IMG/VR virus record: IMGVR_UViG_3300043539_002606
Coordinates: 1 to 64,000 of that record
Direction: 5' to 3' (one strand)
Origin: a virus
DNA: 64,000 nucleotides
A program made the translations under genes and the position numbers. Below, one piece after another: positions 9,933 through 45,297 of the stretch. The notes beneath the pieces are model-generated. The model searched no databases. It was given only the letters and a program-made list of their open reading frames with translations, and had not been told where the DNA came from. Positions within the stretch are counted from its first letter, which is position 1, and every line of letters begins with the position of its first letter.

Positions 9933-9938
9933 GTCACT

Positions 9939-9968
9939 ATATTACCACAAATTTTATCATTTGTAAAC
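9939..9968 (-). promoter_or_regulatory. Early promoter for gp43
   Basis: GTTTACA-17 nt (ending TGG)-TAATAT; ATG 6 nt downstream. Confidence 0.7.
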
Positions 9969-9969
9969 C

Positions 9970-9997
9970 AAAAAAGCACTGCTTAAGCAGTGCTTTT
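9970..9997. terminator. Palindromic, probably bidirectional terminator
   Basis: Perfect palindrome AAAAGCACTGCTTAAGCAGTGCTTTT at 9972-9997. Confidence 0.75.
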
Positions 9998-10021
9998 GTT
10001 TTAAGAATATTGGACTTAATA

Positions 10022-13705: not shown

Positions 13706-13714
13706 AGTGTTATT

Positions 13715-13744
13715 AATATATCATAAGGCGTGATGTTTGTAAAC
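13715..13744 (-). promoter_or_regulatory. Early promoter for the gp45 operon
   Basis: GTTTACA-17 nt (ending TGA)-TATATT. Confidence 0.6.
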
Positions 13745-13785
13745 AAAAAAATGCATCTTGTCGACCACCACAATCGACAAGATGC
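13745..13785 (-). terminator. Rho-independent terminator
   Basis: GCATCTTGTCGA-loop-TCGACAAGATGC followed by a T-run on the minus strand. Confidence 0.75.
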
Positions 13786-15613: not shown

Positions 15614-15628
15614 ATTGGTTACAGGATC

Positions 15629-15681
15629 ATTATACCATATTTTGATGAGATTGTACACAAAAAAGTGAAAAAAAGTGAAAA
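15629..15681 (-). promoter_or_regulatory. Early promoter with a phased T/A-tract upstream element
   Basis: GTGTACA-17 nt (ending TGG)-TATAAT, preceded by (TTTTCACTTT)x2. Confidence 0.7.
15660..15681. repeat. 22-bp inverted repeat, copy 1 (partner at 18121-18142)
   Basis: AAAAAGTGAAAAAAAGTGAAAA is the exact reverse complement of 18121-18142. Confidence 0.85.
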
Positions 15682-15684
15682 TAT

Positions 15685-15714
15685 TTTAGGGCCCCCCTGG
15701 GGGGGGGTGGCCTC
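15685..15714. repeat. GC-rich hairpin containing a 15-bp direct repeat (partner at 18174-18188); possible terminator
   Basis: TTTAGGGCCCCCCTG followed by a G-run. Confidence 0.7.
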
Positions 15715-15717
15715 AGA

Positions 15718-18069
15718 TTAGGCAATCAAGTCCATGAACTTGCTCAGAAAGACTCGGCTTTGCTTTTTGTTAGCAGTATGCTTCGTGAACTCCTTGGCGA
15801 GCTTATTACGACCTGCGCGGCTTTCAGTATCAAGATCATTGATGCTAAAGTCATCCTCGGCTAGTTTAACTCCGGCACGAGCATCGCGCATTACGAAATA
15901 GCCGTCGAAGCCAAAGCCGCCTGGGATATAGATCACTCGCTCATTTGAAGTGCGCGAAGCTTTCATAGTCTTTTCATAGGCAGTATAACCTTCGCCCCAA
16001 GTTTTGATATTTGGAAAAGAATCGCTGCTGATATATGCATTGGAGCATTTAGCAACAAGATCTTTTTTGCCGCTAGTTGGCAAGAAGAAGCAGAGAGTGT
16101 TGCTGCCAGTGATTGCTTTAAAGTCGCGCATCAACTGACTTGCCATTGCTGCTTTATCTGTAGCTTCGCGAGCGAAAAACTTGATCTCTTTCTTATGCCA
16201 GACAAAGCTTCGTTGAGTGCTATAGCTATGGTTATGAGAATCTTTGTTATGCAGTGAATCATTGCCATTTTTAAAGACACTGAGATTGCAACCATCACCA
16301 TCGCTAATGAAAATTGTGTTCATCTTTTGCACTCCAGTTTTTGCTCTAAAGGCATTGACAAGATGTGCAGCAATGATGGTTGTTTCATAGAGAGGTGTGC
16401 CGCTCATAACTTCAAGTTGGCTGCCAAAGACATTGCTACGACCGCATGCATAGTTGAGAAAGAGCTCTTTGCTCGCAGTTTCAAAGTCGACTTTATTGAG
16501 CTCACTATTGAGAAGCTCATTGACTGTCGCCCAGCGAAAATCAATATTGTCACCAATGCGAGCTTCGCGATAGTCATAATTTTCGCTGATCGAGGTAAAG
16601 CCATAGACAACAAAAGGAACGCCAACCGCTTTGCAAAACCAAACAAGTTCAAAAGTTTGTTTGACGACATCAGAAATTACGCCCTCCATGCTTTGACTGC
16701 AATCAAGAAAGAATGCCATGCCGTGGCTTTTGCTTTGTGCTAGGCGAGATACGCTCTTGAAGATTTGGTCGTCATAGCGATAGGCATGCAGTTTGTTGAC
16801 GTTGATCTGACCAGTTGTAGCAAGAGTAGCTCTGCTATATTCAAAGGCGCTCTTTTTACGTTCGAACTCTTTGACAAAGCTTGCTACACTTGACTTGCTG
16901 CTCTTTTTGAAATCGTTCCAACGATCATTCCAGTCTGCATGAGTCATGGCATCGTTATAGCGACTCAAGCGTTTTTGACGTTCAGCACGAACTTTCTTGA
17001 TATCGTTAATGCATTTTGCAAAGTCAGATGGAATTGGAGTATTGACTGTGCTATAGTCATTGCCTTCGTGAAGCTTGTTCAATTCGCTGTCAAAGCTTTG
17101 TTGTGTCGAGCAGCTATAGTCAGCTTCTTTGGTCTGAGTTGGAACTTTGACATTTTTGCCGGCACCGGGGTTTTCAGACTTATCAGCTTGAGGCTGAGTA
17201 ATTGGCTTTTGCTCTTTTGCATCGTCTTGAGAAGCTTCAGTCGTAGACTCTGCTTCAGTGCCATCATCGACCTCGTCAGACTTCTCAGAGCTTTCAGATT
17301 TGTCGCTCTCAGATTTGTCAGATGCTGCATCGCTCTCAGAGCTTTCGCTATCATCTGCAGGCTTAGGGTGACTCAGATTTTGAGTATCGTCATCTGCTTC
17401 ATCTTCGCTTTTTTCATCGCTGCTTGGAGATGACATGTCATCTTCTTCGGACTCTTGCGGCTGGGGAATTTGAGGATTGACATTTTTGTCGCTCTCAATA
17501 AAGTCAATGATGCGGCCGCAAACTTCAAGCACATCGCTCCATGTTTGTGTAGCGTCACATGCTTCAAAGAGAGCTTGCTCTGCATCAGAAAATGTGATGC
17601 TTACTTGATCGCGCAGTTTGCCTTTGAGATTAAGGCGATCAAGAAAGCTCAGTTGAGAGAGATCTTTGCCTGCGATCTTAAAGAAGTCTTGCTCTAAGAA
17701 GTAGCTATAGCCATTGCGAAATGGACTAATAAGGCCTGGGAAATTTTCTTGCACTAGACGCTCGATGCGAATATCTTCGACAATGTTTGCAATGTCAAAT
17801 GGTGCTTTTGGATAGCGAGTCATAAACTCAGTGTGTGCTTGAACTGGAGTATGCAGCGCATGTCCAACTTCGTGGCCTACTAGCAAGTCAGCCACATTCT
17901 TATCAGAGATGTTCCAACTTGGCAGGCCGAGGATTCGGTTTTTGACATCAAAGAAGGCGGTGCTATAATTGCCTACGCGAATCATGATGTTTTCTTTAGC
18001 CAACAGGCGGGCGAGTTGCTTTTGGCTCTCGAAGTTGAAGGCTGGTTGTTTTGAGGTGGTGTTGCTCAC
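15718..18069 (-). CDS. Metallopeptidase-like + acidic linker + VWA domain protein (CobT-like partner of the MoxR ATPase); GTG start
   Basis: HEVGH zincin motif with NIVEDIRIE; S/D/E-rich linker; MIDAS motif DCSQS, GTPL and FISDGD. Confidence 0.85.
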   Translation of the reverse strand: MSNTTSKQPAFNFESQKQLARLLAKENIMIRVGNYSTAFFDVKNRILGLPSWNISDKNVADLLVGHEVGHALHTPVQAHTEFMTRYPKAPFDIANIVEDIRIERLVQENFPGLISPFRNGYSYFLEQDFFKIAGKDLSQLSFLDRLNLKGKLRDQVSITFSDAEQALFEACDATQTWSDVLEVCGRIIDFIESDKNVNPQIPQPQESEEDDMSSPSSDEKSEDEADDDTQNLSHPKPADDSESSESDAASDKSESDKSESSEKSDEVDDGTEAESTTEASQDDAKEQKPITQPQADKSENPGAGKNVKVPTQTKEADYSCSTQQSFDSELNKLHEGNDYSTVNTPIPSDFAKCINDIKKVRAERQKRLSRYNDAMTHADWNDRWNDFKKSSKSSVASFVKEFERKKSAFEYSRATLATTGQINVNKLHAYRYDDQIFKSVSRLAQSKSHGMAFFLDCSQSMEGVISDVVKQTFELVWFCKAVGVPFVVYGFTSISENYDYREARIGDNIDFRWATVNELLNSELNKVDFETASKELFLNYACGRSNVFGSQLEVMSGTPLYETTIIAAHLVNAFRAKTGVQKMNTIFISDGDGCNLSVFKNGNDSLHNKDSHNHSYSTQRSFVWHKKEIKFFAREATDKAAMASQLMRDFKAITGSNTLCFFLPTSGKKDLVAKCSNAYISSDSFPNIKTWGEGYTAYEKTMKASRTSNERVIYIPGGFGFDGYFVMRDARAGVKLAEDDFSINDLDTESRAGRNKLAKEFTKHTANKKQSRVFLSKFMDLIA

Positions 18070-18075
18070 AAGGAA

Positions 18076-18142
18076 ATAGTACCATATTTCGGGAGAAAAG
18101 TAAACAAAAAAATGATATTTTTTTCACTTTTTTTCACTTTTT
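18076..18142 (-). promoter_or_regulatory. Early promoter with an A-tract upstream element
   Basis: GTTTACT-17 nt (ending TGG)-TACTAT; GTG start 6 nt downstream. Confidence 0.7.
18121..18142. repeat. 22-bp inverted repeat, copy 2
   Basis: TTTTCACTTTTTTTCACTTTTT. Confidence 0.85.
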
Positions 18143-18173
18143 AGCCAAAGCTATGATGGGCATGGAGACAAAA

Positions 18174-18240
18174 TTTAGGGCCCCCCTGACATGGGAGGCC
18201 CCGGTTTTTAAATAACGTGCGCCCCCAGGCGGGGGAGTCA
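18174..18240. repeat. GC-rich stem-loop cluster including copy 2 of the 15-bp repeat
   Basis: TTTAGGGCCCCCCTG at 18174-18188; GGGCC-CCC...GGG-A-GGCCC; CCCCC-AGGC-GGGGG. Confidence 0.65.
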
Positions 18241-18241
18241 C

Positions 18242-19966: not shown

Positions 19967-21048
19967 AGACTATCAAGGGCTTGGGCTTCAACATAAAGTT
20001 CTTGCAATAATGTTTTAATTCGATCTCTGTCAAGATCTGTTTCAACAGCATCTACATAGTTATTAAGCAAACTAACTGTGTCTGTTGCAACTGTAGATTC
20101 ATCGATCGTTACATTGCTTGCATTATATTCATCAAAATTTTCAACTGTCTTTACTTCAAATGGATTTGTTGCTTGTATTGCATCAACAAATTTGTCAAAG
20201 AGATAGGGATTCTTTTTGACTCTCACAACTAGCTTGACATAGGTCGATGTTAATGCACTAAAATCATATTCAGCGAGATCAGCATAGATGTTATCATCTG
20301 CATCGCTATCATCATAAACAAGCTTATTGAAAAGAGTAATGGGATTACGAATTGCAGTTAGCTCACGAGTCTCACTATCAAGAATATGAAAATATTTTGG
20401 ATCATCACAATCTGCCCATGTTAATTCATAGGGTGTGCCAAGATAGTGTATATTTCCTTTGTCACTTTTTGTATGATAGTGACCACTCAACACACTCTCA
20501 TAGCGAGAGAAAAGTTCTGCGTTCATGCCATGACTTGCAGCTGGCATGCCTTTCATCATCTCAAAGCCAGCAAGCTCTAGATGTGCACCAAGTATTGGAG
20601 CTTGGGCAGTTTGTATAAATTCAATGCTGCTAGCATAATTCTCTGGATTAATCCATGGCAGCAGTGCAATCTTTAATCCATCATAATCCAAAATTGTTGG
20701 ACTCATATGCAGCTTAATAACATCGCTATGCAACATGACAATCTCTTGCAAGCTGCAGACATCGTTTGTGCTCTTGTAATAGACATCATGGTTGCCAGGA
20801 ATAATATTCATCGTCATGCCATATTCACGAAGCTTTTCAATGAAATTGGCTTTGTTTGCAGCCAATGCTTTGATGTTCGTAAATTTGCGATGATCATAAT
20901 AATCACCTAGATGCAGGATTTCAGTGATGCCTTGTTTTTTACATTCAGGAAAAAATACTTCATCATAGAATCTCTTTTCATTGTTAATAAAGACATCGCT
21001 GCCATTTTTGATCCCGCTATGGGTATCTGTGATAATAGCTATTTTCAT
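19963..21048 (-). CDS. gp47: Mre11/SbcD-like recombination nuclease subunit
   Basis: ITDTH, HLGD, PGNHD, AHLEL and SGHYH motifs. Confidence 0.97.
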   Translation of the reverse strand: MKIAIITDTHSGIKNGSDVFINNEKRFYDEVFFPECKKQGITEILHLGDYYDHRKFTNIKALAANKANFIEKLREYGMTMNIIPGNHDVYYKSTNDVCSLQEIVMLHSDVIKLHMSPTILDYDGLKIALLPWINPENYASSIEFIQTAQAPILGAHLELAGFEMMKGMPAASHGMNAELFSRYESVLSGHYHTKSDKGNIHYLGTPYELTWADCDDPKYFHILDSETRELTAIRNPITLFNKLVYDDSDADDNIYADLAEYDFSALTSTYVKLVVRVKKNPYLFDKFVDAIQATNPFEVKTVENFDEYNASNVTIDESTVATDTVSLLNNYVDAVETDLDRDRIKTLLQELYVEAQALDSL

Positions 21049-21689
21049 AGTGTTGCAAAGAAATCACTCAATGGACCAAGTTCTGGTGTTTTTTTAGCTG
21101 GTCGACCTCTTTTCTTTTTGGTCGGCAATGGCTCATGATCCTTAACGCTGCAAAGATCATCATTATAAAAGTCTCCATCAAGTTTATGACGAGCTCGTTC
21201 AATCATGCTCTCTCCGATCTGACCGCTGTCGTCACCAAAGTCTGCAAATGAATCAAGACTTGAACCTTCAATAAGTTTCTGCTTAATCTCGGTTTGTTTC
21301 TTTTCTTTTTCAATGCGTCTCAAAAAGGCATAATAACTGATTTGGGTAAAATAGCTAAATGCATTTGGTGTGCCAGTTCGAGTAGGAGCATCAATATTAA
21401 AGTTATTGACAACCTTAATGCAATTCTCAACTGCATCCATAACCATATCATCTCGATAGCTATAGTTCATGAAGTTGGGACTTCTTGATAAGCCATTGGC
21501 AATCTGATAAATCCCCAATGCAATATAGTCTGTAACTACTGGATCCTCAATGCCGCTTGCTCGGGCAGTTTTAACGCTTTGAACATATGAGGCCAAAGCC
21601 AAACTAAGTTCTTTATTGTTAATATAATCGGATCCTTCTTTTCTTTTACGTGTACTTTTTACTTTTTTTGGTTGATCTTCTTCAATCAT
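21045..21689 (-). CDS. gp55: Late-transcription sigma factor (probable start MIEED at 21689)
   Basis: YINNKEL, NFMNYSYRDDMVMDAVENC and NAFSYFTQISYYAFLRRIEKEKK motifs. Confidence 0.96.
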   Translation of the reverse strand: MIEEDQPKKVKSTRKRKEGSDYINNKELSLALASYVQSVKTARASGIEDPVVTDYIALGIYQIANGLSRSPNFMNYSYRDDMVMDAVENCIKVVNNFNIDAPTRTGTPNAFSYFTQISYYAFLRRIEKEKKQTEIKQKLIEGSSLDSFADFGDDSGQIGESMIERARHKLDGDFYNDDLCSVKDHEPLPTKKKRGRPAKKTPELGPLSDFFATL

Positions 21690-21696
21690 GCTATCT

Positions 21697-21725
21697 AGTA
21701 TACCACAAAACAAAAGTTTGTAAAC
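21697..21725 (-). promoter_or_regulatory. Early promoter for gp55-47-46
   Basis: GTTTAC-17 nt (ending TGG)-TATACT; ATG 7 nt downstream. Confidence 0.7.
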
Positions 21726-21747
21726 AATTATTTTTATGAATTTTTTG

Positions 21748-21776
21748 GTTTACAAACAATCAGATTCATGTATAAT
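21748..21776 (+). promoter_or_regulatory. Antisense-oriented sigma70-type promoter, copy 1
   Basis: GTTTAC-17 nt-TATAAT, divergent from the gp55 promoter. Confidence 0.75.
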
Positions 21777-21815
21777 AGGTGCCATGCACCTTCGGCTGAA
21801 TGTAATGAAGCCGAT
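21768..21815 (+). repeat. 48-bp exact repeat, copy 1 (-10 box plus two hairpins)
   Basis: ATGTATAATAGGTGCCATGCACCTTCGGCTGAATGTAATGAAGCCGAT, identical to 35162-35209. Confidence 0.95.
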
Positions 21816-21879
21816 AGATGTTGCTGATTGTTTGCTCTTAAAATATCTATAATGATATTATAATCTCATAAGAGCATGA

Positions 21880-22893
21880 TTATTCTTTAATCTTTCGAAA
21901 GCCAAGTAAGGTATGTTTTACTGCCATCCACATGTCTAGATACTTATAGTTGCTTAATCTGCCTGTAAACATTACATTCTTTTCTTCGGCTTTAAGCTTT
22001 TCATATTGGGAGTATTGACGCTGTGCATCTCCCCATGGTATTGGATAATAAGGTATATCATTCTCTCTTGCCTCTTTTGGCAATTCGCTTGTAATGACAG
22101 TCAAGCCTTTATGATCTGGGTTAAAATAGCTATGATCATAGATTCTTGTATATGGCACATCAGCTCTATTTTGATTGACAATAAATGTTTCTTGTTTTGG
22201 AACAAATGCCTTATGATGAAATTCCAAACTACGATATGGCAATCGTCCATAGCAATAGTCATAATATTCATCAATTTTTCCAGTATAGACCAATAGATCT
22301 CGAGGAGCAGATTTCCATGCATCACCATCGGAGTTTATATGCACAGTTATATTCTCATGATCAAGCATGCTGGCAAACATAGCGCTATAGCCATGCTTTG
22401 GCAAGCACTGATATTTTTGATGTCGAAACCATGTTGGATTTTCATCATCTGCTGTTTGAGGTATGCGATTTGTAATGGTTTGTGGGATTTCTTCAAATGG
22501 CACACCCCATTGTTTTTCGCTATATTCCTTAAAGAAATATTCTCGAATCTCCTCTGGCTCAAGTTCTCGACCCAGTGCTGCAACTGTTGCCCGTGAATAT
22601 GGCAATGGCACAACTCCCAATCGAGTATCTCCTAATGGTCTTAATTCAAATGGAATCCATTCAGTGAATCGACTCAAAAATTCAAAAACCTCTTCATCAT
22701 CAGTATGAAAAATATGAGGACCATAGGTGTGTACTCTTACGTGACCCATTAACTGATCTGCACAATTGCCTCCAATATGATCACGTGATTCATATATTGT
22801 TACGTTCGCGCCAGCATCAGCAAAGCATCGAGCAGCTGTGCAGCCACTTAGGCCTGCTCCAACCACTACTATATTTTTATTAACATATTCCAT
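21880..22893 (-). CDS. glf: UDP-galactopyranose mutase (FAD-dependent pyranose-to-furanose mutase)
   Basis: VVGAGLSG, IGGNC, HTYGPHIFHT, YSEKQWG, YTGKID, LPYRSL, YTRI, PYYP and GRLSNYKYLDM motifs. Confidence 0.93.
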   Translation of the reverse strand: MEYVNKNIVVVGAGLSGCTAARCFADAGANVTIYESRDHIGGNCADQLMGHVRVHTYGPHIFHTDDEEVFEFLSRFTEWIPFELRPLGDTRLGVVPLPYSRATVAALGRELEPEEIREYFFKEYSEKQWGVPFEEIPQTITNRIPQTADDENPTWFRHQKYQCLPKHGYSAMFASMLDHENITVHINSDGDAWKSAPRDLLVYTGKIDEYYDYCYGRLPYRSLEFHHKAFVPKQETFIVNQNRADVPYTRIYDHSYFNPDHKGLTVITSELPKEARENDIPYYPIPWGDAQRQYSQYEKLKAEEKNVMFTGRLSNYKYLDMWMAVKHTLLGFRKIKE

Positions 22894-23557
22894 TGTCTTT
22901 TGCATATCTATAGACTAATTCTTCTTGATATTTTGTATCTGTATATGTTGCAATAATTTCATCGAGATTCTCATGAAATGCCTTTGCTATTTTCTTCATA
23001 TTCTGAAGATCACCACAATAAAAATTATCAACACCAATTACTGATCTGCTTAATCTTGGATGTCTAAAGACGAACTCTCTGGTAAAAATTAATTTATTGC
23101 ATATTGACATATTTGCTTGACATATTGGTCGGGTGAAATAGTCCCAACGTGTATTAATGATTCTAAAATAATCATCTGGTATTTTCTCTAATCCGCTGTG
23201 TATGCCAGCCCACATATTTTTCCAACTTATTTTTGGTATTTTACTTTGACAAATTTGACCATCAATCGTTTGATGTAGTTTTAATTTGCTATCATCAAGA
23301 ATCGTGATATTTTTAATAATATCCTTATGCTCAATAAAATAGTGTTCAATAAGATTTGGAGTAACAATCAATTTTGCACTATTATTGACTTCGCGATAGC
23401 TGCTATCAGCTTCAGCATATTTCCAACTTTGACAATAGACGTGTAAATCAACATCGCGTTTGCTTCTTAAATTTTGTACAAATTCCTTTAGACTTGGACT
23501 AAATAAGCCATCACGAATATGTCCTCGAATATAAAGGGCTATTTTGTGTTTGTTCAT
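22880..23557 (-). CDS. Hypothetical protein overlapping glf and uvsW; possibly a nucleotide-sugar-dependent transferase
   Basis: IALYIRGHIR start, INTRWD and GVDNFY motifs. The function is inferred from context only. Confidence 0.6.
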   Translation of the reverse strand: MNKHKIALYIRGHIRDGLFSPSLKEFVQNLRSKRDVDLHVYCQSWKYAEADSSYREVNNSAKLIVTPNLIEHYFIEHKDIIKNITILDDSKLKLHQTIDGQICQSKIPKISWKNMWAGIHSGLEKIPDDYFRIINTRWDYFTRPICQANMSICNKLIFTREFVFRHPRLSRSVIGVDNFYCGDLQNMKKIAKAFHENLDEIIATYTDTKYQEELVYRYAKDNGIC

Positions 23558-25038
23558 ATCTTAACTGTATATATTTTGTAATTAAAGCCTTCTTTATCAT
23601 AGATAGCAACACGCTCTGCTCCATGCTTTAGGCTGAAGTTTTTCTTTTTCTTCCATGAGAAGTTATCGCTAATATCATAGACAGTGGTAGCTTGACCATT
23701 ATCGCTCAATCGCAGGCCACGACCAATGCTTTGTAGAATTTTAATTTGGCTTTTGGTTGGTGCTGCAAAAATAATATTATGCAAATTGCGTATATTAATG
23801 CCTGTGCTAAAAGTAGCGCTGCTCGCAACAATAACTGCATTTGACTCGCTCTCTACTTCTCCACGTACTTTTTCGCGAACATCTGTATCTGTTTCACCAC
23901 TGACATAATAGATCTTACGATCTGGCTCCGCTGCAACCAATGCAGCATGCAACGGCTTGCCATGTTTTACTACATAGTTGAAAATTACAAGTGTATTGCC
24001 TTTGAGGCCTCGAGCAAGATTAACAATAAACCTATTGCGGGCAGAATGAGAAATAATCACATCAATCTCGCTAGCATAATCAAGCTTGCTTACTGCCTTT
24101 TTAACTTCATCATCATAATCAAGCACGATGCAGTGTATATTCAACTCTGCAAGTGTCTTGCTCTCCATAAGAGCCTTTGTTGTTGTGACTTTAAATATTG
24201 GCCCAAAATGTCCAACAAGCACACGCTCATTGCATTTGCTGCCATCAAGTGTGCCCGTTGTGCCAATGCGATAGCTTGCATTGGTCAGTGTATTCATAAT
24301 TGTATTGAGACTCTTTGCTTTAAACTGATGTGCTTCATCCCCAACAATCATGCCATATTTTTTGAACCAACTTTCAGGACATGTGATTGCACTCTGCCAT
24401 GTTGTGATTGTCACTCGTGTGCCAGCAACTTCTTTTTCTTTGCCGCTATAGATGCGATGCACTAGTTTTTCAGAATCAAATTCATTATCATGAGTGCTAT
24501 AGTCTGCAAAATCGCTGGCTAGCTGTTCAACAAGACTGGTCGTTGGCACAACAACTAGTGCCTTTTCAGTCTCATGATCAATATACCAACGCAGCAGCAT
24601 ATAAATGATCAAGCTCTTGCCGCTGCCAGTTGGACTCAAGACAAGTGTTCTGCCGCTTGTCAAGCTTTGTACAACTGCTTCAACCTGATAATCATGTGGT
24701 GTTATGCTATTTCCACGAGCAGATAGATTTAATTTTGAAATATAGTCAATCACCTCTTGACGAGATGGCAAAGGAGCTCGCAAGCTGTCATCATAATCAA
24801 CTGCATAGCCTCGTTCTTTTGCAAATTTTGCTAGCTCACCAATCAAGCCATAAGGCAGTGTATGCGATCTTAAATTAAACAATCTGATTTTGCCATCCCA
24901 GAGTTTATTACGATATGCAGGAATAAACTTATAGCCTTCTGCATAAAACGTAAAATGCTCACCAAGCTCCATGAGTGCACCAGTATCGGCGCTTCTCACA
25001 AAGATCTCTGCTTCATTCTTTTTACTTAGTTTAAACAC
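23554..25038 (-). CDS. uvsW: SF2 DNA/RNA-DNA helicase (probable GTG start at 25038)
   Basis: WDGKIRLF, SPTGSGKS, DEAH, GTTGT and QSIGRGLR motifs. Confidence 0.96.
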   Translation of the reverse strand: MFKLSKKNEAEIFVRSADTGALMELGEHFTFYAEGYKFIPAYRNKLWDGKIRLFNLRSHTLPYGLIGELAKFAKERGYAVDYDDSLRAPLPSRQEVIDYISKLNLSARGNSITPHDYQVEAVVQSLTSGRTLVLSPTGSGKSLIIYMLLRWYIDHETEKALVVVPTTSLVEQLASDFADYSTHDNEFDSEKLVHRIYSGKEKEVAGTRVTITTWQSAITCPESWFKKYGMIVGDEAHQFKAKSLNTIMNTLTNASYRIGTTGTLDGSKCNERVLVGHFGPIFKVTTTKALMESKTLAELNIHCIVLDYDDEVKKAVSKLDYASEIDVIISHSARNRFIVNLARGLKGNTLVIFNYVVKHGKPLHAALVAAEPDRKIYYVSGETDTDVREKVRGEVESESNAVIVASSATFSTGINIRNLHNIIFAAPTKSQIKILQSIGRGLRLSDNGQATTVYDISDNFSWKKKKNFSLKHGAERVAIYDKEGFNYKIYTVKI

Positions 25039-25477
25039 CTGCTTGGAATCTCTTAAAGTCAATAATGTTCTTGATTGTTTGATGTCTCCAACGCAACGTA
25101 TCAAGTATTTCTTTGCATGTATCAACATACACACCTATATATTCACATGCCATTTTGCACTCACTGATGTCAGTGTCTGTGTTATAATACATATCCATAT
25201 CACCCTTAAGTGGTTTATTCATGCCATGAAATGGATCATATATCCAGCCTCGCGCATCCATTTCATCCTTTGTCATTTTGCCATTATAATAGAGCCACTT
25301 ATCTTTTTTAAGTATGGCAAGATCAAGCTCTTTCTTTTTTAATCTCAGTTTGGCAACTGTATGGAATTCAAGATATTTGCTATGCAGCATTGCACCTCGT
25401 AAGGTTGTTTCATCAAGCGCATGCTCACTAATCTTTGAATCATTTGCCCATTGTTTTAATAGCTCTTCGACATCCAT
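25031..25477 (-). CDS. uvsY: Recombination mediator
   Basis: LHSKYL, KWLYYNGK and IKNIIDFKRFQAG motifs; gp3-uvsY-uvsW synteny. Confidence 0.9.
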   Translation of the reverse strand: MDVEELLKQWANDSKISEHALDETTLRGAMLHSKYLEFHTVAKLRLKKKELDLAILKKDKWLYYNGKMTKDEMDARGWIYDPFHGMNKPLKGDMDMYYNTDTDISECKMACEYIGVYVDTCKEILDTLRWRHQTIKNIIDFKRFQAGV

Positions 25478-33557: not shown

Positions 33558-35135
33558 TCAAAGAGTATGCCACTCTCTTGCATTATCTATAAGCTCATCA
33601 TATGCACTGCCCGTTGATGATGTTGTTGAAACATAACCAAATGGTGGTAGATCCTCTTCCATCTCAAGCATCTTTTCGCTATATAACAACTCGCGCAGGT
33701 CAGTATCGCTCATGCCATTAAACACGTCCGTACTCACAAACCACGAGAAGAGTACGAAATTCATAACACTATCATCATGTGCGCCTTCACTTGCAGCAAA
33801 GCTATCACCCTTTGGTACAAAGTTTGCAAGTTCAGCAATAGTATATGCATCAACAATATGCAGTTTATTAGCTTCAAGCAAGTCTTTTAAGTTACTGCAG
33901 CCAATGCGTTTAACTTTTTTGGTCATGACAACGCCAATGCCATTGCTCTTAACAGCACTTGTCGTAAACATATTTTCATATTCATAGTCATAATAAACAG
34001 CATTACACACAACCTGACCAACGTCATTGTTTTCAATAATAACAAGTGCTTGATTATATTGCGTTGCTGCCCGAACAATAAGATTTGGAAATAGCAGTGG
34101 TGAAATGGTATTGTTGCGATAGGTACAAACCTGCTTAAATGGTTTAGTTGATATATCAATTACCGAGAAGGTGCTATAATCCTGTCCACGACCTTTACTA
34201 ACATCAGCTACAAGTATATAGGCATGATCTTCTTGTGGTGCCTCATAATAAACAATATCATGCTGCATATTAATTGGACTTTGTGCTTGCAAGCCCAACA
34301 AACATGTGCTGCCTATTAGTGTATCAGCGCTGCCAACAAATTCACAAGAGAACTCCTGTCGAAACTGTGCTTCACTTGTATTTGCAATTGTCTTTGCACG
34401 CCAATCATCATCTCGACCTGGCACATCACGCCAATTAATAGTAAACGGTTTAAATTCGTTGCTATTACTAATTGCGCCTTGCCATAGTTTATAGAACATA
34501 TTGCCAACACCATTTGGTGTGCTTGTAATAATAACCTTTGTATCACTGCCAGAACTAATTACTGGATAGGTTGAGGTATAAAACTCTTCAGCTTTATGCA
34601 CAAAGGCAAACTCATCAAGAAAAATAATGTTTGCACTTATGCCTCGAATACTGCTGCTGCTTGTTGCCGCTGCAATAATCTCACTATTATGAGCAAATAC
34701 AATATTACCTTTATTGAGCACTCGCACACCTGGCTGCAAAAAGAATGGCAGATTTTCAAGCATGAGAGTAAAGCGACTCAACATCTCGCGAGCAGTTGCA
34801 CCTTTATTAGCAAGCACTGCAACCTTTTTATCTGCATTGAAAACCATATAGTGCAGCAGCCATGCAACACTAGTCACACTCTTACCGCTCTGTCTAGGTG
34901 CTAGAACAATACTAAATCGATTATCACTATAGTGTTTTACAAGATTGCTCTGATAGCCTCGCAATTCAAATGGCACAAGTCCATGATCCAGACTAATAAC
35001 CTTTACATAATTCTTGCAAAAATATTCAACATCATTTCGGCAACGAATATATTCGCTAACTTCATGCGCTGAGAAATTTTGTTGTACCCCATCTGCTTTG
35101 ATTTTGGGATTTCCATTATATGAATTATTTTGCAT
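33558..35135 (-). CDS. gp17: Terminase large subunit
   Basis: YNGNPKIK, PRQSGKS, FLDEFAF, TSTPNG, DVSKGRGQDYS and HDDSVM motifs. Confidence 0.98.
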   Translation of the reverse strand: MQNNSYNGNPKIKADGVQQNFSAHEVSEYIRCRNDVEYFCKNYVKVISLDHGLVPFELRGYQSNLVKHYSDNRFSIVLAPRQSGKSVTSVAWLLHYMVFNADKKVAVLANKGATAREMLSRFTLMLENLPFFLQPGVRVLNKGNIVFAHNSEIIAAATSSSSIRGISANIIFLDEFAFVHKAEEFYTSTYPVISSGSDTKVIITSTPNGVGNMFYKLWQGAISNSNEFKPFTINWRDVPGRDDDWRAKTIANTSEAQFRQEFSCEFVGSADTLIGSTCLLGLQAQSPINMQHDIVYYEAPQEDHAYILVADVSKGRGQDYSTFSVIDISTKPFKQVCTYRNNTISPLLFPNLIVRAATQYNQALVIIENNDVGQVVCNAVYYDYEYENMFTTSAVKSNGIGVVMTKKVKRIGCSNLKDLLEANKLHIVDAYTIAELANFVPKGDSFAASEGAHDDSVMNFVLFSWFVSTDVFNGMSDTDLRELLYSEKMLEMEEDLPPFGYVSTTSSTGSAYDELIDNAREWHTL

Positions 35136-35141
35136 TTTTTT

Positions 35142-35170
35142 GTTTACAAACTTTCAACATTATGTATAAT
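35142..35170 (+). promoter_or_regulatory. Antisense-oriented sigma70-type promoter, copy 2
   Basis: GTTTAC-17 nt-TATAAT in the gp16/gp17 gap. Confidence 0.75.
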
Positions 35171-35209
35171 AGGTGCCATGCACCTTCGGCTGAATGTAAT
35201 GAAGCCGAT
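35162..35209 (+). repeat. 48-bp exact repeat, copy 2
   Basis: Identical to 21768-21815. Confidence 0.95.
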
Positions 35210-35222
35210 TGCTACATCTTAT

Positions 35223-35657
35223 CTATGCCTGTTGATTGCTTAAGAATTTTTGAAGTTCAATAGTTGTACCAACAAAAATTGCATTGTTTGTTGTACTATT
35301 TGCCTCATTAGGTTTATTTCCTTTGATCAACAGCTTACGCTGCTTTTGAAGATCAAGTAGCTGCTGATTCATTTCAGCACTTTGTTTAATCATATTGCCA
35401 AGCACCTCATATGCCCGAGGATGTTCAGCATCGGTAGCAAGTGCATGTAAATTACTAATTACTTCATCACTTGTATCAAGCAATTTTTTCATGCGCACTC
35501 GAGCATATTCAAAATCATCCTGTGCATCGCTTATTAGTGCTTCATCGCTTGGCTCAGGTGTTAAAATCTTTGGAGCTGGTGGGGCTGGCATCATAATCTC
35601 AAGCTGACCAGTCAAATTTTTCATTAACTCGCTCTTATGGGATTGGTCTGGTTTCAT
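35223..35657 (-). CDS. gp16: Terminase small subunit
   Basis: DDFEYAR, HPRAYEVL and NNAIFVGTT.ELQKFL motifs. Confidence 0.93.
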   Translation of the reverse strand: MKPDQSHKSELMKNLTGQLEIMMPAPPAPKILTPEPSDEALISDAQDDFEYARVRMKKLLDTSDEVISNLHALATDAEHPRAYEVLGNMIKQSAEMNQQLLDLQKQRKLLIKGNKPNEANSTTNNAIFVGTTIELQKFLSNQQA

Positions 35658-42792: not shown

Positions 42793-45297
42793 TTAAACTC
42801 TGTAAGCCAATGAGCGTATATTATGAAATGCAAATCCAGAGCTGCCAGCTCCACCGCTATTGGTAATTTGAAAAGAACATACATGGTTATTAGTAGTTAC
42901 TGAGCCAGTTGGTCCTCCAATTAGTGATGGTATGGTAGTAGAATTTAGGTAGCCACTAACTTGTCCATTATAATAAGACAACTTCCAGTCTGCTACAGTT
43001 GTCCAAGACGTGTATGCTAATTGACCGCCTTCAAATAAGTTGGTTCCATCGTGCGCCCAAAGACTTATTCCTGTAGGTGTTGCTTTAAAACCGAATCCTT
43101 TTTTATTTGGAAGCGTTACTGGTATGGCTTTATTAAATGTCTCTCCTATTACAAACCAAAACACTGACGCGCTATTACCAAATGTAATACGGCTCATTAT
43201 CATTTCCAACATAAATACTTTGTTATCGAATGAAAGTGCTGATACATCACCAGCAAGGATAAATGGACTAACTGGTTGTTGTGCGCTAGTCCAGTTATAT
43301 ATTTGGTCGGCTGTTGAATTATTAAAACCTACACCATCATTTGTAGAATTTGCTACTTGCCAAGATTTCCATTTTGGACCAAATCCTAAAAAGGATTCGT
43401 CATACAATCCTTTTGTCATTACATGAGAATCTCCTAACGCGCTTAAAGCTGGTTGTCCTACAACTGTCAATTCGCCAGAAACTTCAATGTTATTATCTAA
43501 CTTAGCACTCGTTACGCTGCCATCACTTGGTACAACCTGTCCTACTTGCACAGTATTGACTGGCGATATTACCACTGCTTTTGCTCCAGATTCGAGAGGC
43601 GATGTGAATATTATATTTCCACCGCTAACACTATAGTCAGCACCTGGCTCTTGCAATGCACCATCAATAGCAACAATTAATGCACTTGGATTAGTTAGTC
43701 CGCTTGCACCACTAATAGCATATACACTAGTTGAGCCATTGCCAGTAACTGTTGTGCGAACAGGATCAACGTAAGGAGCCGGTGGACCTTCAGGACCAAC
43801 ATCACCTTTTTCAGATGTTAATGTAACAGCAACAAACTTTAAGAATTCAACCTTGATACTAGCAGTGCTATCTTTGTTTTGAACAATAAAAAATATTCTA
43901 TCACCTGGATTTAGATCAAGAACTGTTTGAACAGCAGCAGCTGATGGTTTAGTCTGACTTACAGCGTTGGCATATATCTCACTTTCACTAATACGATTGA
44001 GATTTGGATCTAACGCTGATCCAGGAACTGTATTTTTACCTATGTAAAATCCACATGTATCATTTGAGCCTGAGTAAAAGTTGAAACTAGCAACCACATG
44101 AAAACGCCCACCGTCACCTGTATATTTCAATGAATTGGTAGTTGCATCCTTCTCAAAATTGAATAATAAACCAGTCTCCATTGTACCTGCTACAACTGCC
44201 CTACCATTTATGCTTGGTATAGTTGTTGCTGTAGCATTATTTTTTAAGTAGATTACACCAACATCATGATTACCTGCAACACCTGATCCAGGCAAGCCTT
44301 GATCGCCTGTATCGCCCTTCTCACCCTGAATTCCTTGTATGCCTTGTATGCCTTGTATGCCTTGATCACCAGTATCACCTTTGTCACCTTTTAAACCCTG
44401 TATGCCTTGAATGCCTTGATCTCCCGTATCACCTTTGTCACCTTTTAAACCCTGTATGCCTTGATCACCAGTATCACCCTTTAATCCTTGAATTCCTTGA
44501 ATTCCTTGATCACCTTTTAAACCCTGTATGCCTTGTATGCCTTGATCACCAGTATCACCCTTTAATCCTTGAATTCCTTGATCACCTTTTGATGCAGCGA
44601 GAACCCAATCAACACCAGGATAACCTGGATAATACGAAGAATACACACCAGTTGCTGTATAATAAAGAGAGCCATTATAAGTGACGAGATCTCCAGCAGC
44701 ATAGTCATACCCATTGACCCACACGCCTCTAAAATTCCAAAGTGCATCTGCACCGTCTGCGCCATTAGAACCTTGTATGCCCTGATCACCCTTTAAACCT
44801 TGTATTCCTTGTATGCCCTGATCACCCTTTAAACCTTGTATGCCTTGTATGCCCTGTATACCCTGTATGCCTTGATCACCTTTATCACCCTTCTCGCCTT
44901 TATCTCCGCGTGGTATTGTAAAGTTTATGATTGCATCATGAATACTACCAGCATTTGTTATAACGACATTTGATCCAGCGGCACCTGTTGTTACAGTGCC
45001 AATACTTATAGTAGCTGCATCACCTGTATCTCCCTTTGGTCCTTGAGCTCCAACATCTCCACGAGGTATTGTAAAATCAAAAATAGCAACACTGCTTGTG
45101 CCTCTATTGTTAACAATTACAAGACTGCCTGGTGCACCTGTTGTTACTGTGCCAACACTTATAGTAGCTGCAAGACCCTGAGGACCTTGTGTGCCAGTTT
45201 GAAATATAGGCCCAACATAATTGCCAGCTTCATGCAATGCTGGTATAATCAAATTAGGATTATTGTTAATTATAACGGGTGGTAATATTTCAGACAT
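42793..45297 (-). CDS. Collagen-like fibre protein
   Basis: Extensive Gly-X-Y repeats (GIQ/GLK/GDQ), duplicated ATIS.GTVTTGA.GS modules, beta-rich C-terminal domains. Confidence 0.85.
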   Translation of the reverse strand: MSEILPPVIINNNPNLIIPALHEAGNYVGPIFQTGTQGPQGLAATISVGTVTTGAPGSLVIVNNRGTSSVAIFDFTIPRGDVGAQGPKGDTGDAATISIGTVTTGAAGSNVVITNAGSIHDAIINFTIPRGDKGEKGDKGDQGIQGIQGIQGIQGLKGDQGIQGIQGLKGDQGIQGSNGADGADALWNFRGVWVNGYDYAAGDLVTYNGSLYYTATGVYSSYYPGYPGVDWVLAASKGDQGIQGLKGDTGDQGIQGIQGLKGDQGIQGIQGLKGDTGDQGIQGLKGDKGDTGDQGIQGIQGLKGDKGDTGDQGIQGIQGIQGIQGEKGDTGDQGLPGSGVAGNHDVGVIYLKNNATATTIPSINGRAVVAGTMETGLLFNFEKDATTNSLKYTGDGGRFHVVASFNFYSGSNDTCGFYIGKNTVPGSALDPNLNRISESEIYANAVSQTKPSAAAVQTVLDLNPGDRIFFIVQNKDSTASIKVEFLKFVAVTLTSEKGDVGPEGPPAPYVDPVRTTVTGNGSTSVYAISGASGLTNPSALIVAIDGALQEPGADYSVSGGNIIFTSPLESGAKAVVISPVNTVQVGQVVPSDGSVTSAKLDNNIEVSGELTVVGQPALSALGDSHVMTKGLYDESFLGFGPKWKSWQVANSTNDGVGFNNSTADQIYNWTSAQQPVSPFILAGDVSALSFDNKVFMLEMIMSRITFGNSASVFWFVIGETFNKAIPVTLPNKKGFGFKATPTGISLWAHDGTNLFEGGQLAYTSWTTVADWKLSYYNGQVSGYLNSTTIPSLIGGPTGSVTTNNHVCSFQITNSGGAGSSGFAFHNIRSLAYRV
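44290..44905 (-). repeat. Two tracts of 9-bp-unit collagen-coding tandem repeats
   Basis: Repeated CCTTGTATG / CCTTGATCA / CCTTTTAAA units on the plus strand, interrupted by about 170 bp of unique sequence. Confidence 0.9.

Follow-up and report, generated by a model that had tools for sequence, protein, structure and literature searches.

A duplicated promoter and hairpin cassette directed against the late genes of an uncultured T4-like phage as a candidate antisense early-promoter module

The genome of an uncultured, T4-like (Kyanoviridae-like) virus contains two copies of a short cassette that consists of a promoter, a palindrome, and a hairpin and points against the late genes around it. 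Sequence comparison identifies this cassette as a real, selected, and duplicated control element, because its palindrome is fixed among the available versions and its hairpin is kept via compensating mutations. The best explanation, to which we assign a probability of roughly 45%, is that both copies are early promoters that would give noncoding transcripts against the late operons, with the palindrome as a protein-binding site and the hairpin as a structured 5' leader.

The window analyzed here, i.e., the whole stretch of 64,000 nucleotides, is part of an 83.6-kb IMG/VR record (estimated to be 46% complete; 37.6% G+C). Judged by TerL, the closest phage in GenBank is Phage C48C1 (Kyanoviridae), with 58% identity. 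Nearly all genes in the window are on the minus strand, in agreement with the statement in a preliminary description of this DNA that the cassette runs against almost every gene. The elements of the two copies and the neighboring genes, the latter named through profile searches, are as follows.

21045-21689, minus strand: gp55, late sigma factor
21697-21725, minus strand: gp55's own early promoter, GTTTAC-17-TATACT, back to back with the plus-strand promoter
21730-21815, plus strand: repeat copy 1, 86 nt (T-run, promoter, palindrome, hairpin), between glf and gp55
21748-21776, plus strand: copy 1 promoter, GTTTAC-17-TATAAT, with a T-run before it; predicted early-class sigma-70
21748-21753, plus strand: copy 1 -35 box, GTTTAC, followed by the 17-nt spacer
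21771-21776, plus strand: copy 1 -10 box, TATAAT
21777-21791: copy 1 palindrome, AGGTGC-CAT-GCACCT, 15 nt, over the predicted start point (the A of ATG, 21784)
21792-21814, plus strand: copy 1 hairpin 2, TCGGCT/AGCCGA, 6-bp stem and 11-nt loop GAATGNAATGA
21834-21875: the AT-rich tract of the preliminary description, an inverted repeat (GCTCTTA...TAAGAGC) that separates copy 1 from the glf stop codon
21880-22905, minus strand: glf (UDP-galactopyranose-mutase-like)
Between the glf-like gene and uvsW: 225-aa gene without assigned function
23554-25128: uvsW (UvsW)
33558-35135, minus strand: terL
35124-35209, plus strand: repeat copy 2, 86 nt, filling the 87-nt terS-terL gap
35142-35147 and 35165-35170, plus strand: copy 2 -35 and -10 boxes
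35171-35185 and 35186-35208, plus strand: copy 2 palindrome and hairpin 2
35223-35657, minus strand: terS
Elsewhere in the window: gp47, gp46, gp15, and the tail sheath gene

A repeat finder aligns the two copies (21730-21815 and 35124-35209) over 86 nt with 88% identity, and 48 bp of this stretch are identical (21768-21815 = 35162-35209; columns 39 to 86 of alignment A1). The copies are located 13.4 kb apart in the same orientation, i.e., as direct repeats, and every statement previously made on the sequence of the promoter, the palindrome, the hairpin, and the 48-bp recurrence is correct. There are only two copies in the 83.6-kb record. The palindrome likewise occurs just twice in this record and in that of each relative; allowing one mismatch reveals no further site in any of these records, and the covariance model R1 finds no extra or diverged copies in the record itself and those of five relatives. 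The scan for additional copies suggested in the preliminary description thus stops at two in this record and finds the cassette in relatives, too. An assembly artefact, which it had named as a possible source of the duplication, is ruled out, because three independent contigs, 97% related to the window, each contain both copies; further contigs contain one. Outside the clade, an exact 38-nt cassette query of IMG/VR returns zero matches, and a looser 17-nt query adds only a chance match within a gene of a G+C-rich phage. A megablast search of the region against GenBank phages also returns zero matches. In Rfam, nothing in the window reaches the gathering score, and around copy 1 there is only noise at E values below 10.

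The perfect GTTTAC-N17-TATAAT pattern has only two plus-strand sites in the window, versus 0.05 expected, and no shuffled sequence reached two. A scan of the whole record shows that early promoters of this phage share a consensus that consists of a T-run, GTTTACAAA, and TATAAT, often with a preceding TGn, and is found ahead of gp55 and several further minus-strand genes. Both cassette promoters fit this consensus and are predicted to belong, most likely, to the host-type (sigma-70) early class. The T4-type late promoters (TATAAATA) are found on the minus strand only, directly ahead of start codons. The real terminators of the phage are long G+C-rich stems with a U-run, fused to the next early promoter. 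A terminator scan of the cassette calls no terminator-like site on either strand. For a plus-strand RNA, there is no terminator after copy 1, the single weak candidate that follows copy 2 is disrupted in relative L006, and the alignment of the region after copy 2 reveals no conserved 3' end.

Two minor features of these promoters may be recorded here. The -10 box of the gp55 promoter (21697-21702) is located 7 nt ahead of the ATG (21689), which is a leaderless layout, and this layout is the rule in the phage: TATAAATA is found just 5 to 7 nt ahead of the ATG in 7 of 10 late promoters, and, in the early class, gp55 and two or three more genes have their -10 box 6 to 7 nt from the start codon. 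Such sites are located at 1785, 10690, 38131, 45668, and 47914 of the window (minus strand) and at 64120, 70715, 79096, and 81058 of the record. In addition, the reverse complement of the backward -35 region at 35136-35147 reads TGTAAACA, matching the late promoter TATAAATA in 6 of 8 positions, and is located 5 nt ahead of the terL ATG, a spacing typical of late promoters in this phage; the likeness is probably due to chance.

Seven versions of the cassette were compared: two from the window, those found at both sites in the 97% relatives, those at the two sites in 85 to 90% relatives, and one from a metagenome contig. They were gathered by protein-guided and pattern searches, with a metagenome scan adding one (L088). 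Both promoter hexamers and the 17-nt spacing are invariant in all seven (alignment A1), without indels, whereas none of the 14 spacer columns is. The earlier argument that a spacer kept in length and free in sequence points to selection on function is therefore borne out. The cassette abuts the -10 box in every version, also without indels. None of the 15 columns of the palindrome varies, which argues for recognition of its sequence, beyond the fold alone, and makes it a candidate protein-binding site. In hairpin 2, three of the six pairs have changed on both sides and still pair (T-A to C-G, G-C to C-G, and G-C to A-T), so the covariation check proposed in the preliminary description finds compensatory changes in the relatives. 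Pairing is preserved in 97.6% of cells, compared with 26 to 50% in slid controls. Variation in the loop is restricted to 2 apical nucleotides. On the plus strand, this loop can zip into a tandem G.A, two A-T pairs, and a GNA-type triloop; the zipped form, which had been proposed before and is possible only on that strand, fits the confinement of the loop changes to the apex. As DNA, the 39-nt double hairpin folds better than shuffled sequences on either strand (z scores of -4.0 to -5.4). Covariation cannot separate the two strands, because every stem variant is Watson-Crick. Only four to five independent lineages bear the cassette, so these conservation statistics are thin.

The copies within one genome share the states of their lineage. 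Thus, the loop has a T in the window and an A in the 97% relatives, and the stem has TCGG in the window versus CCCG or CCCA in the 85 to 90% relatives. These shared changes indicate gene conversion. The block of identity begins at the -10 box. Ahead of this box, the sequence of each copy is closer to that of the orthologous site in distant relatives than to that of the other copy. Accordingly, the promoters have long stood at these two sites, and gene conversion has homogenized the segment that extends from the -10 box to hairpin 2. The three 97% relatives lack both the glf-like gene and its 225-aa partner (21853-23551), which are present in the 85% relative L064. This 1.7-kb indel, starting at 21853, is a recent event adjoining copy 1, with its break 37 nt from hairpin 2.

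Backward GTTTAC-N17/18-TATAAT promoters with perfect hexamers and unrelated spacers are found ahead of gp55 in all eight loci whose gp55 has at least 51% identity, in each case back to back with the gp55 promoter. In distant relatives, the promoter at this site faces a 139-aa gene and uvsW directly, with no hairpins between. A backward promoter in the terS-terL gap is also found in the lineage of L009, L019, and L042 and in G004 (TerL identity, 65 to 76%), followed in each by a different structured sequence. In L008 (TerL identity, 67%), the promoter pattern is unmatched in this gap; in relatives with TerL identity of 64% or less and in C48C1, terS and terL abut or overlap, and there is no promoter. 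The sequence downstream of the distant promoters is single-copy, a second copy having been looked for and not found, and the palindrome is not kept there. Given this conservation of position with differing downstream sequences, comparison of the loci indicates that the conserved feature is the backward promoter and that the cassette is a leader specific to one clade, appended to this promoter. The distant promoters are followed by no ATG-led frame or by ATG-TAA only, so the conserved function is not coding. On the working strand, the sister lineages conflict: the backward strand folds better in L009, and the sense strand folds better in the gap hairpin of G004, owing to G.U pairs (-20.5 versus -10.2 kcal/mol).

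In the preferred reading, both elements would be early promoters of the host sigma-70 RNA polymerase that fire against late operons. Transcription from copy 1 would enter glf, the 225-aa gene, uvsW, and head genes, and that from copy 2, whose predicted start is only about 45 nt from terS, would enter terS, gp15, gp14, and gp13. Both transcripts would be noncoding antisense RNAs, similar in kind to the "anti-late" RNA of T4. The 39-nt duplicated cassette may represent a promoter-proximal control and leader module, in which a sequence-specific protein would read the palindrome over the start point and switch the promoter, and hairpin 2 (about +9 to +31) would form a structured 5' leader that stabilizes or marks the RNA. 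Both promoters are old, and within this narrow clade gene conversion has equalized the stretch from the -10 box to hairpin 2 and has since preserved the match. The comparisons directly support the conservation of the promoter type, the covariation of the stem, the conservation of position, and the concerted evolution of the copies; a promoter conserved in position opposite coding genes, as in cis-antisense RNAs, is found here. From these, we infer transcription, its start point, the role of the operator, and an effect on the late genes. The preliminary description had put forward an R-loop origin, with a small RNA and a palindromic operator as the alternative. The selection that it proposed for the function of the promoter is upheld, the comparison with relatives supports selection on the second stem as well, and its alternative fits best, whereas the origin gains nothing.

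Such an origin, of the T4 type, would have the early-promoter RNA remain as an R-loop and prime the leading strand, with hairpins on the displaced strand holding the loop open. In T4, oriF and oriG combine a promoter with an A+T-rich unwinding element, oriE is dependent on an early promoter, most early synthesis begins in late-gene regions, and origins have no sequence signature beyond the promoter and the unwinding element (PMC3016281). As in T4, two strong promoters are located here in late-gene regions and are predicted to be able to supply a primer RNA, and the phage encodes UvsW. The AT-rich tract that was described as following the cassette is real at copy 1 (76% A+T over 50 to 80 nt) and weak at copy 2, which is followed by ordinary coding sequence with 68 to 70% A+T (genome, 62%). 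Unlike the T4 origins, the two copies have no unwinding element in common, and their conserved 39 nt after the -10 box are structured and about 53% G+C; a hairpin in the nascent RNA should also compete with hybrid formation. Cumulative GC and AT skew tracks gene direction only and shows no turn at either site, which is weak evidence, and distant relatives keep the promoter with no common tract downstream. Neither an origin nor a priming role is supported by these sequences, and we regard both as unlikely. A function at the DNA level seems equally improbable. The palindrome might be bound by a phage protein, e.g., TerS, in pac-type recognition or synapsis, or the repeats might be PeSL-like recombination points that shuffle modules. 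The preferred pac site of T4 is the 3' end of gene 16, and gp16 rings have been proposed to synapse two pac sites, driving amplifications (PMC3012670). Copy 2 is located 14 nt from the terS stop codon, the palindrome is invariant, the copies recombine, as judged from their concerted evolution, and the 1.7-kb indel ends 37 nt from copy 1. However, binding or shuffling would leave the conservation of the promoter type and the covarying hairpin 2 unexplained, distant relatives have the promoters without the palindrome, and there are no chimeric junctions among the assembled contigs.

It is conceivable, if doubtful, that the hairpins act in the gene-sense late mRNA, by protecting its 3' end, marking it for processing, or uncoupling the translation of terL and terS, and that the backward promoter is a separate neighbor. 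Both copies are found soon after a stop codon and ahead of the next gene (at 65 nt for copy 1 and, after terS, at 14 nt for copy 2, in gene sense), and, as no late promoter is dedicated to terL, the late mRNA has to pass through copy 2 and include the cassette. Covariation is equally valid on the sense strand, which folds as well and is the one favored by the G004 hairpin. However, the conserved loop ends give U.C and C.U mismatches on that strand instead of G.A pairs, the identity block starts exactly at the backward -10 box, a hairpin after the upstream gene is missing in those relatives that have the backward promoter ahead of gp55, and the L009 lineage folds better on the backward strand; lacking a U-run, the cassette hairpins are not terminators. 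It is highly improbable that the cassette starts a leaderless mRNA for a peptide of 20 to 27 residues beginning with MHL(R/P)LN. The TATAAT-N7-ATG layout is the same as in gp55 and other leaderless genes of the phage, and the frame is open for 20 to 53 codons in all seven versions, but the changes in the stem would be radical replacements (R4P; P10R, P10W, and P10T), homologous bases of L064 are read in another frame after codon 11, hairpin 2 falls inside the ribosome footprint, and the distant backward promoters have no ATG or ATG-TAA only. This peptide was rejected on its frame and substitution pattern. A sense-strand mini-ORF of 8 to 11 codons that begins in the palindrome seems unlikely as well, as its SD spacing is poor and its stop codon is not conserved.

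Among known elements, the promoter-early stem-loop (PeSL) cassettes of T4-type phages (Arbiol et al. 2010, PMC2839356; Comeau et al. 2014, PMC4122927) are defined by a terminator stem-loop upstream of a promoter that points with the genes to an SD sequence and a start codon (PMC4122927). Like these, the cassette is a short repeated unit with a strong sigma-70-type early promoter and a stem-loop. PeSL units are present in several recombining copies next to indels in plastic regions; the concerted evolution of the two copies here, one of which is 37 nt from the 1.7-kb indel, may be a partial likeness. Unlike them, it has its hairpins after the promoter and without a U-run, points against all neighboring genes rather than with them toward an SD sequence and a start codon, and is found in core late regions in just two copies. 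It has no terminator stem-loop just upstream, although such units exist elsewhere in the record. The cassette is not a canonical PeSL; it extends the theme of promoter and stem-loop in T4-like phages. PeSL-like composites are found on the gene strand at 9933-10021, 13706-13781, 15614-15717, and 17986-18241, with the U-run of the terminator hairpin passing directly into a GTTTAC...TATAAT early promoter. Repeated TCACTTTTTT words adjoin early promoters at 15620-15700 and 18060-18110 and are inverted at 18.1 kb, alongside C-run/G-run hairpins.

Antisense RNA is known in T4 in the form of the "anti-late" RNA of the 1970s literature. CfrI is reportedly an antisense RNA of cyanophage S-PM2, said to have been described by Millard and colleagues in 2010. 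Like the antisense RNAs of T4-like phages, the cassette combines a host-type promoter directed against phage genes with a predicted noncoding antisense transcript. We know of no counterpart among these RNAs to a duplicated leader cassette with a palindrome over +1. For T4 gene 32, antisense transcription is noted in the literature (Belin et al. 1987, as cited in PMC2988021). Candidate structured RNAs have also been described adjoining large-terminase genes (PMC10690425). These occupy the same genomic slot in the same backward orientation. The cassette leaves only the short distance noted above between its predicted start and terS and is also found at gp55.

The presence of backward promoters at the same two core positions in phages whose proteins are 51 to 76% identical points to a selected role for early antisense transcription in their timing program. 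To our knowledge, there are almost no experimental data on the timing of antisense early transcription in such phages. T4-like phages without MotA, AsiA, Alt, and Mod (PMC2984593) provide the setting for such a program. The cassette combines a promoter with a candidate operator of 15 bp and a stem-loop that covaries, and is thus compact and testable. More speculatively, and with a rather low probability, it might be the smallest member of a wider, undescribed class of backward-transcribed elements that uncultured Kyanoviridae-like phages retain at set core sites, i.e., in the terS-terL gap and at the boundary between uvsW and gp55, and that would couple early transcription by the host polymerase to a DNA transaction, either R-loop priming or the marking of DNA for packaging or recombination; the palindrome would then be a switch closed by a phage protein at the early-to-late transition. 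If an origin or packaging role were true, the cassette would be the first sequence-based entry point to the replication or pac-type signals of this large environmental group.

Two other observations concern neighboring sequences. In G004 (L093, 2401-3375, and L094), the match to TerL falls into two parts separated by about 1.4 kb, and the interval contains a 324-aa ORF, which could represent an intron, homing-endonuclease, or intein-type insertion. In the window, the segment at 44288-44910 contains 9-nt periodic, collagen-like repeats within an 834-aa ORF (42793-45297).
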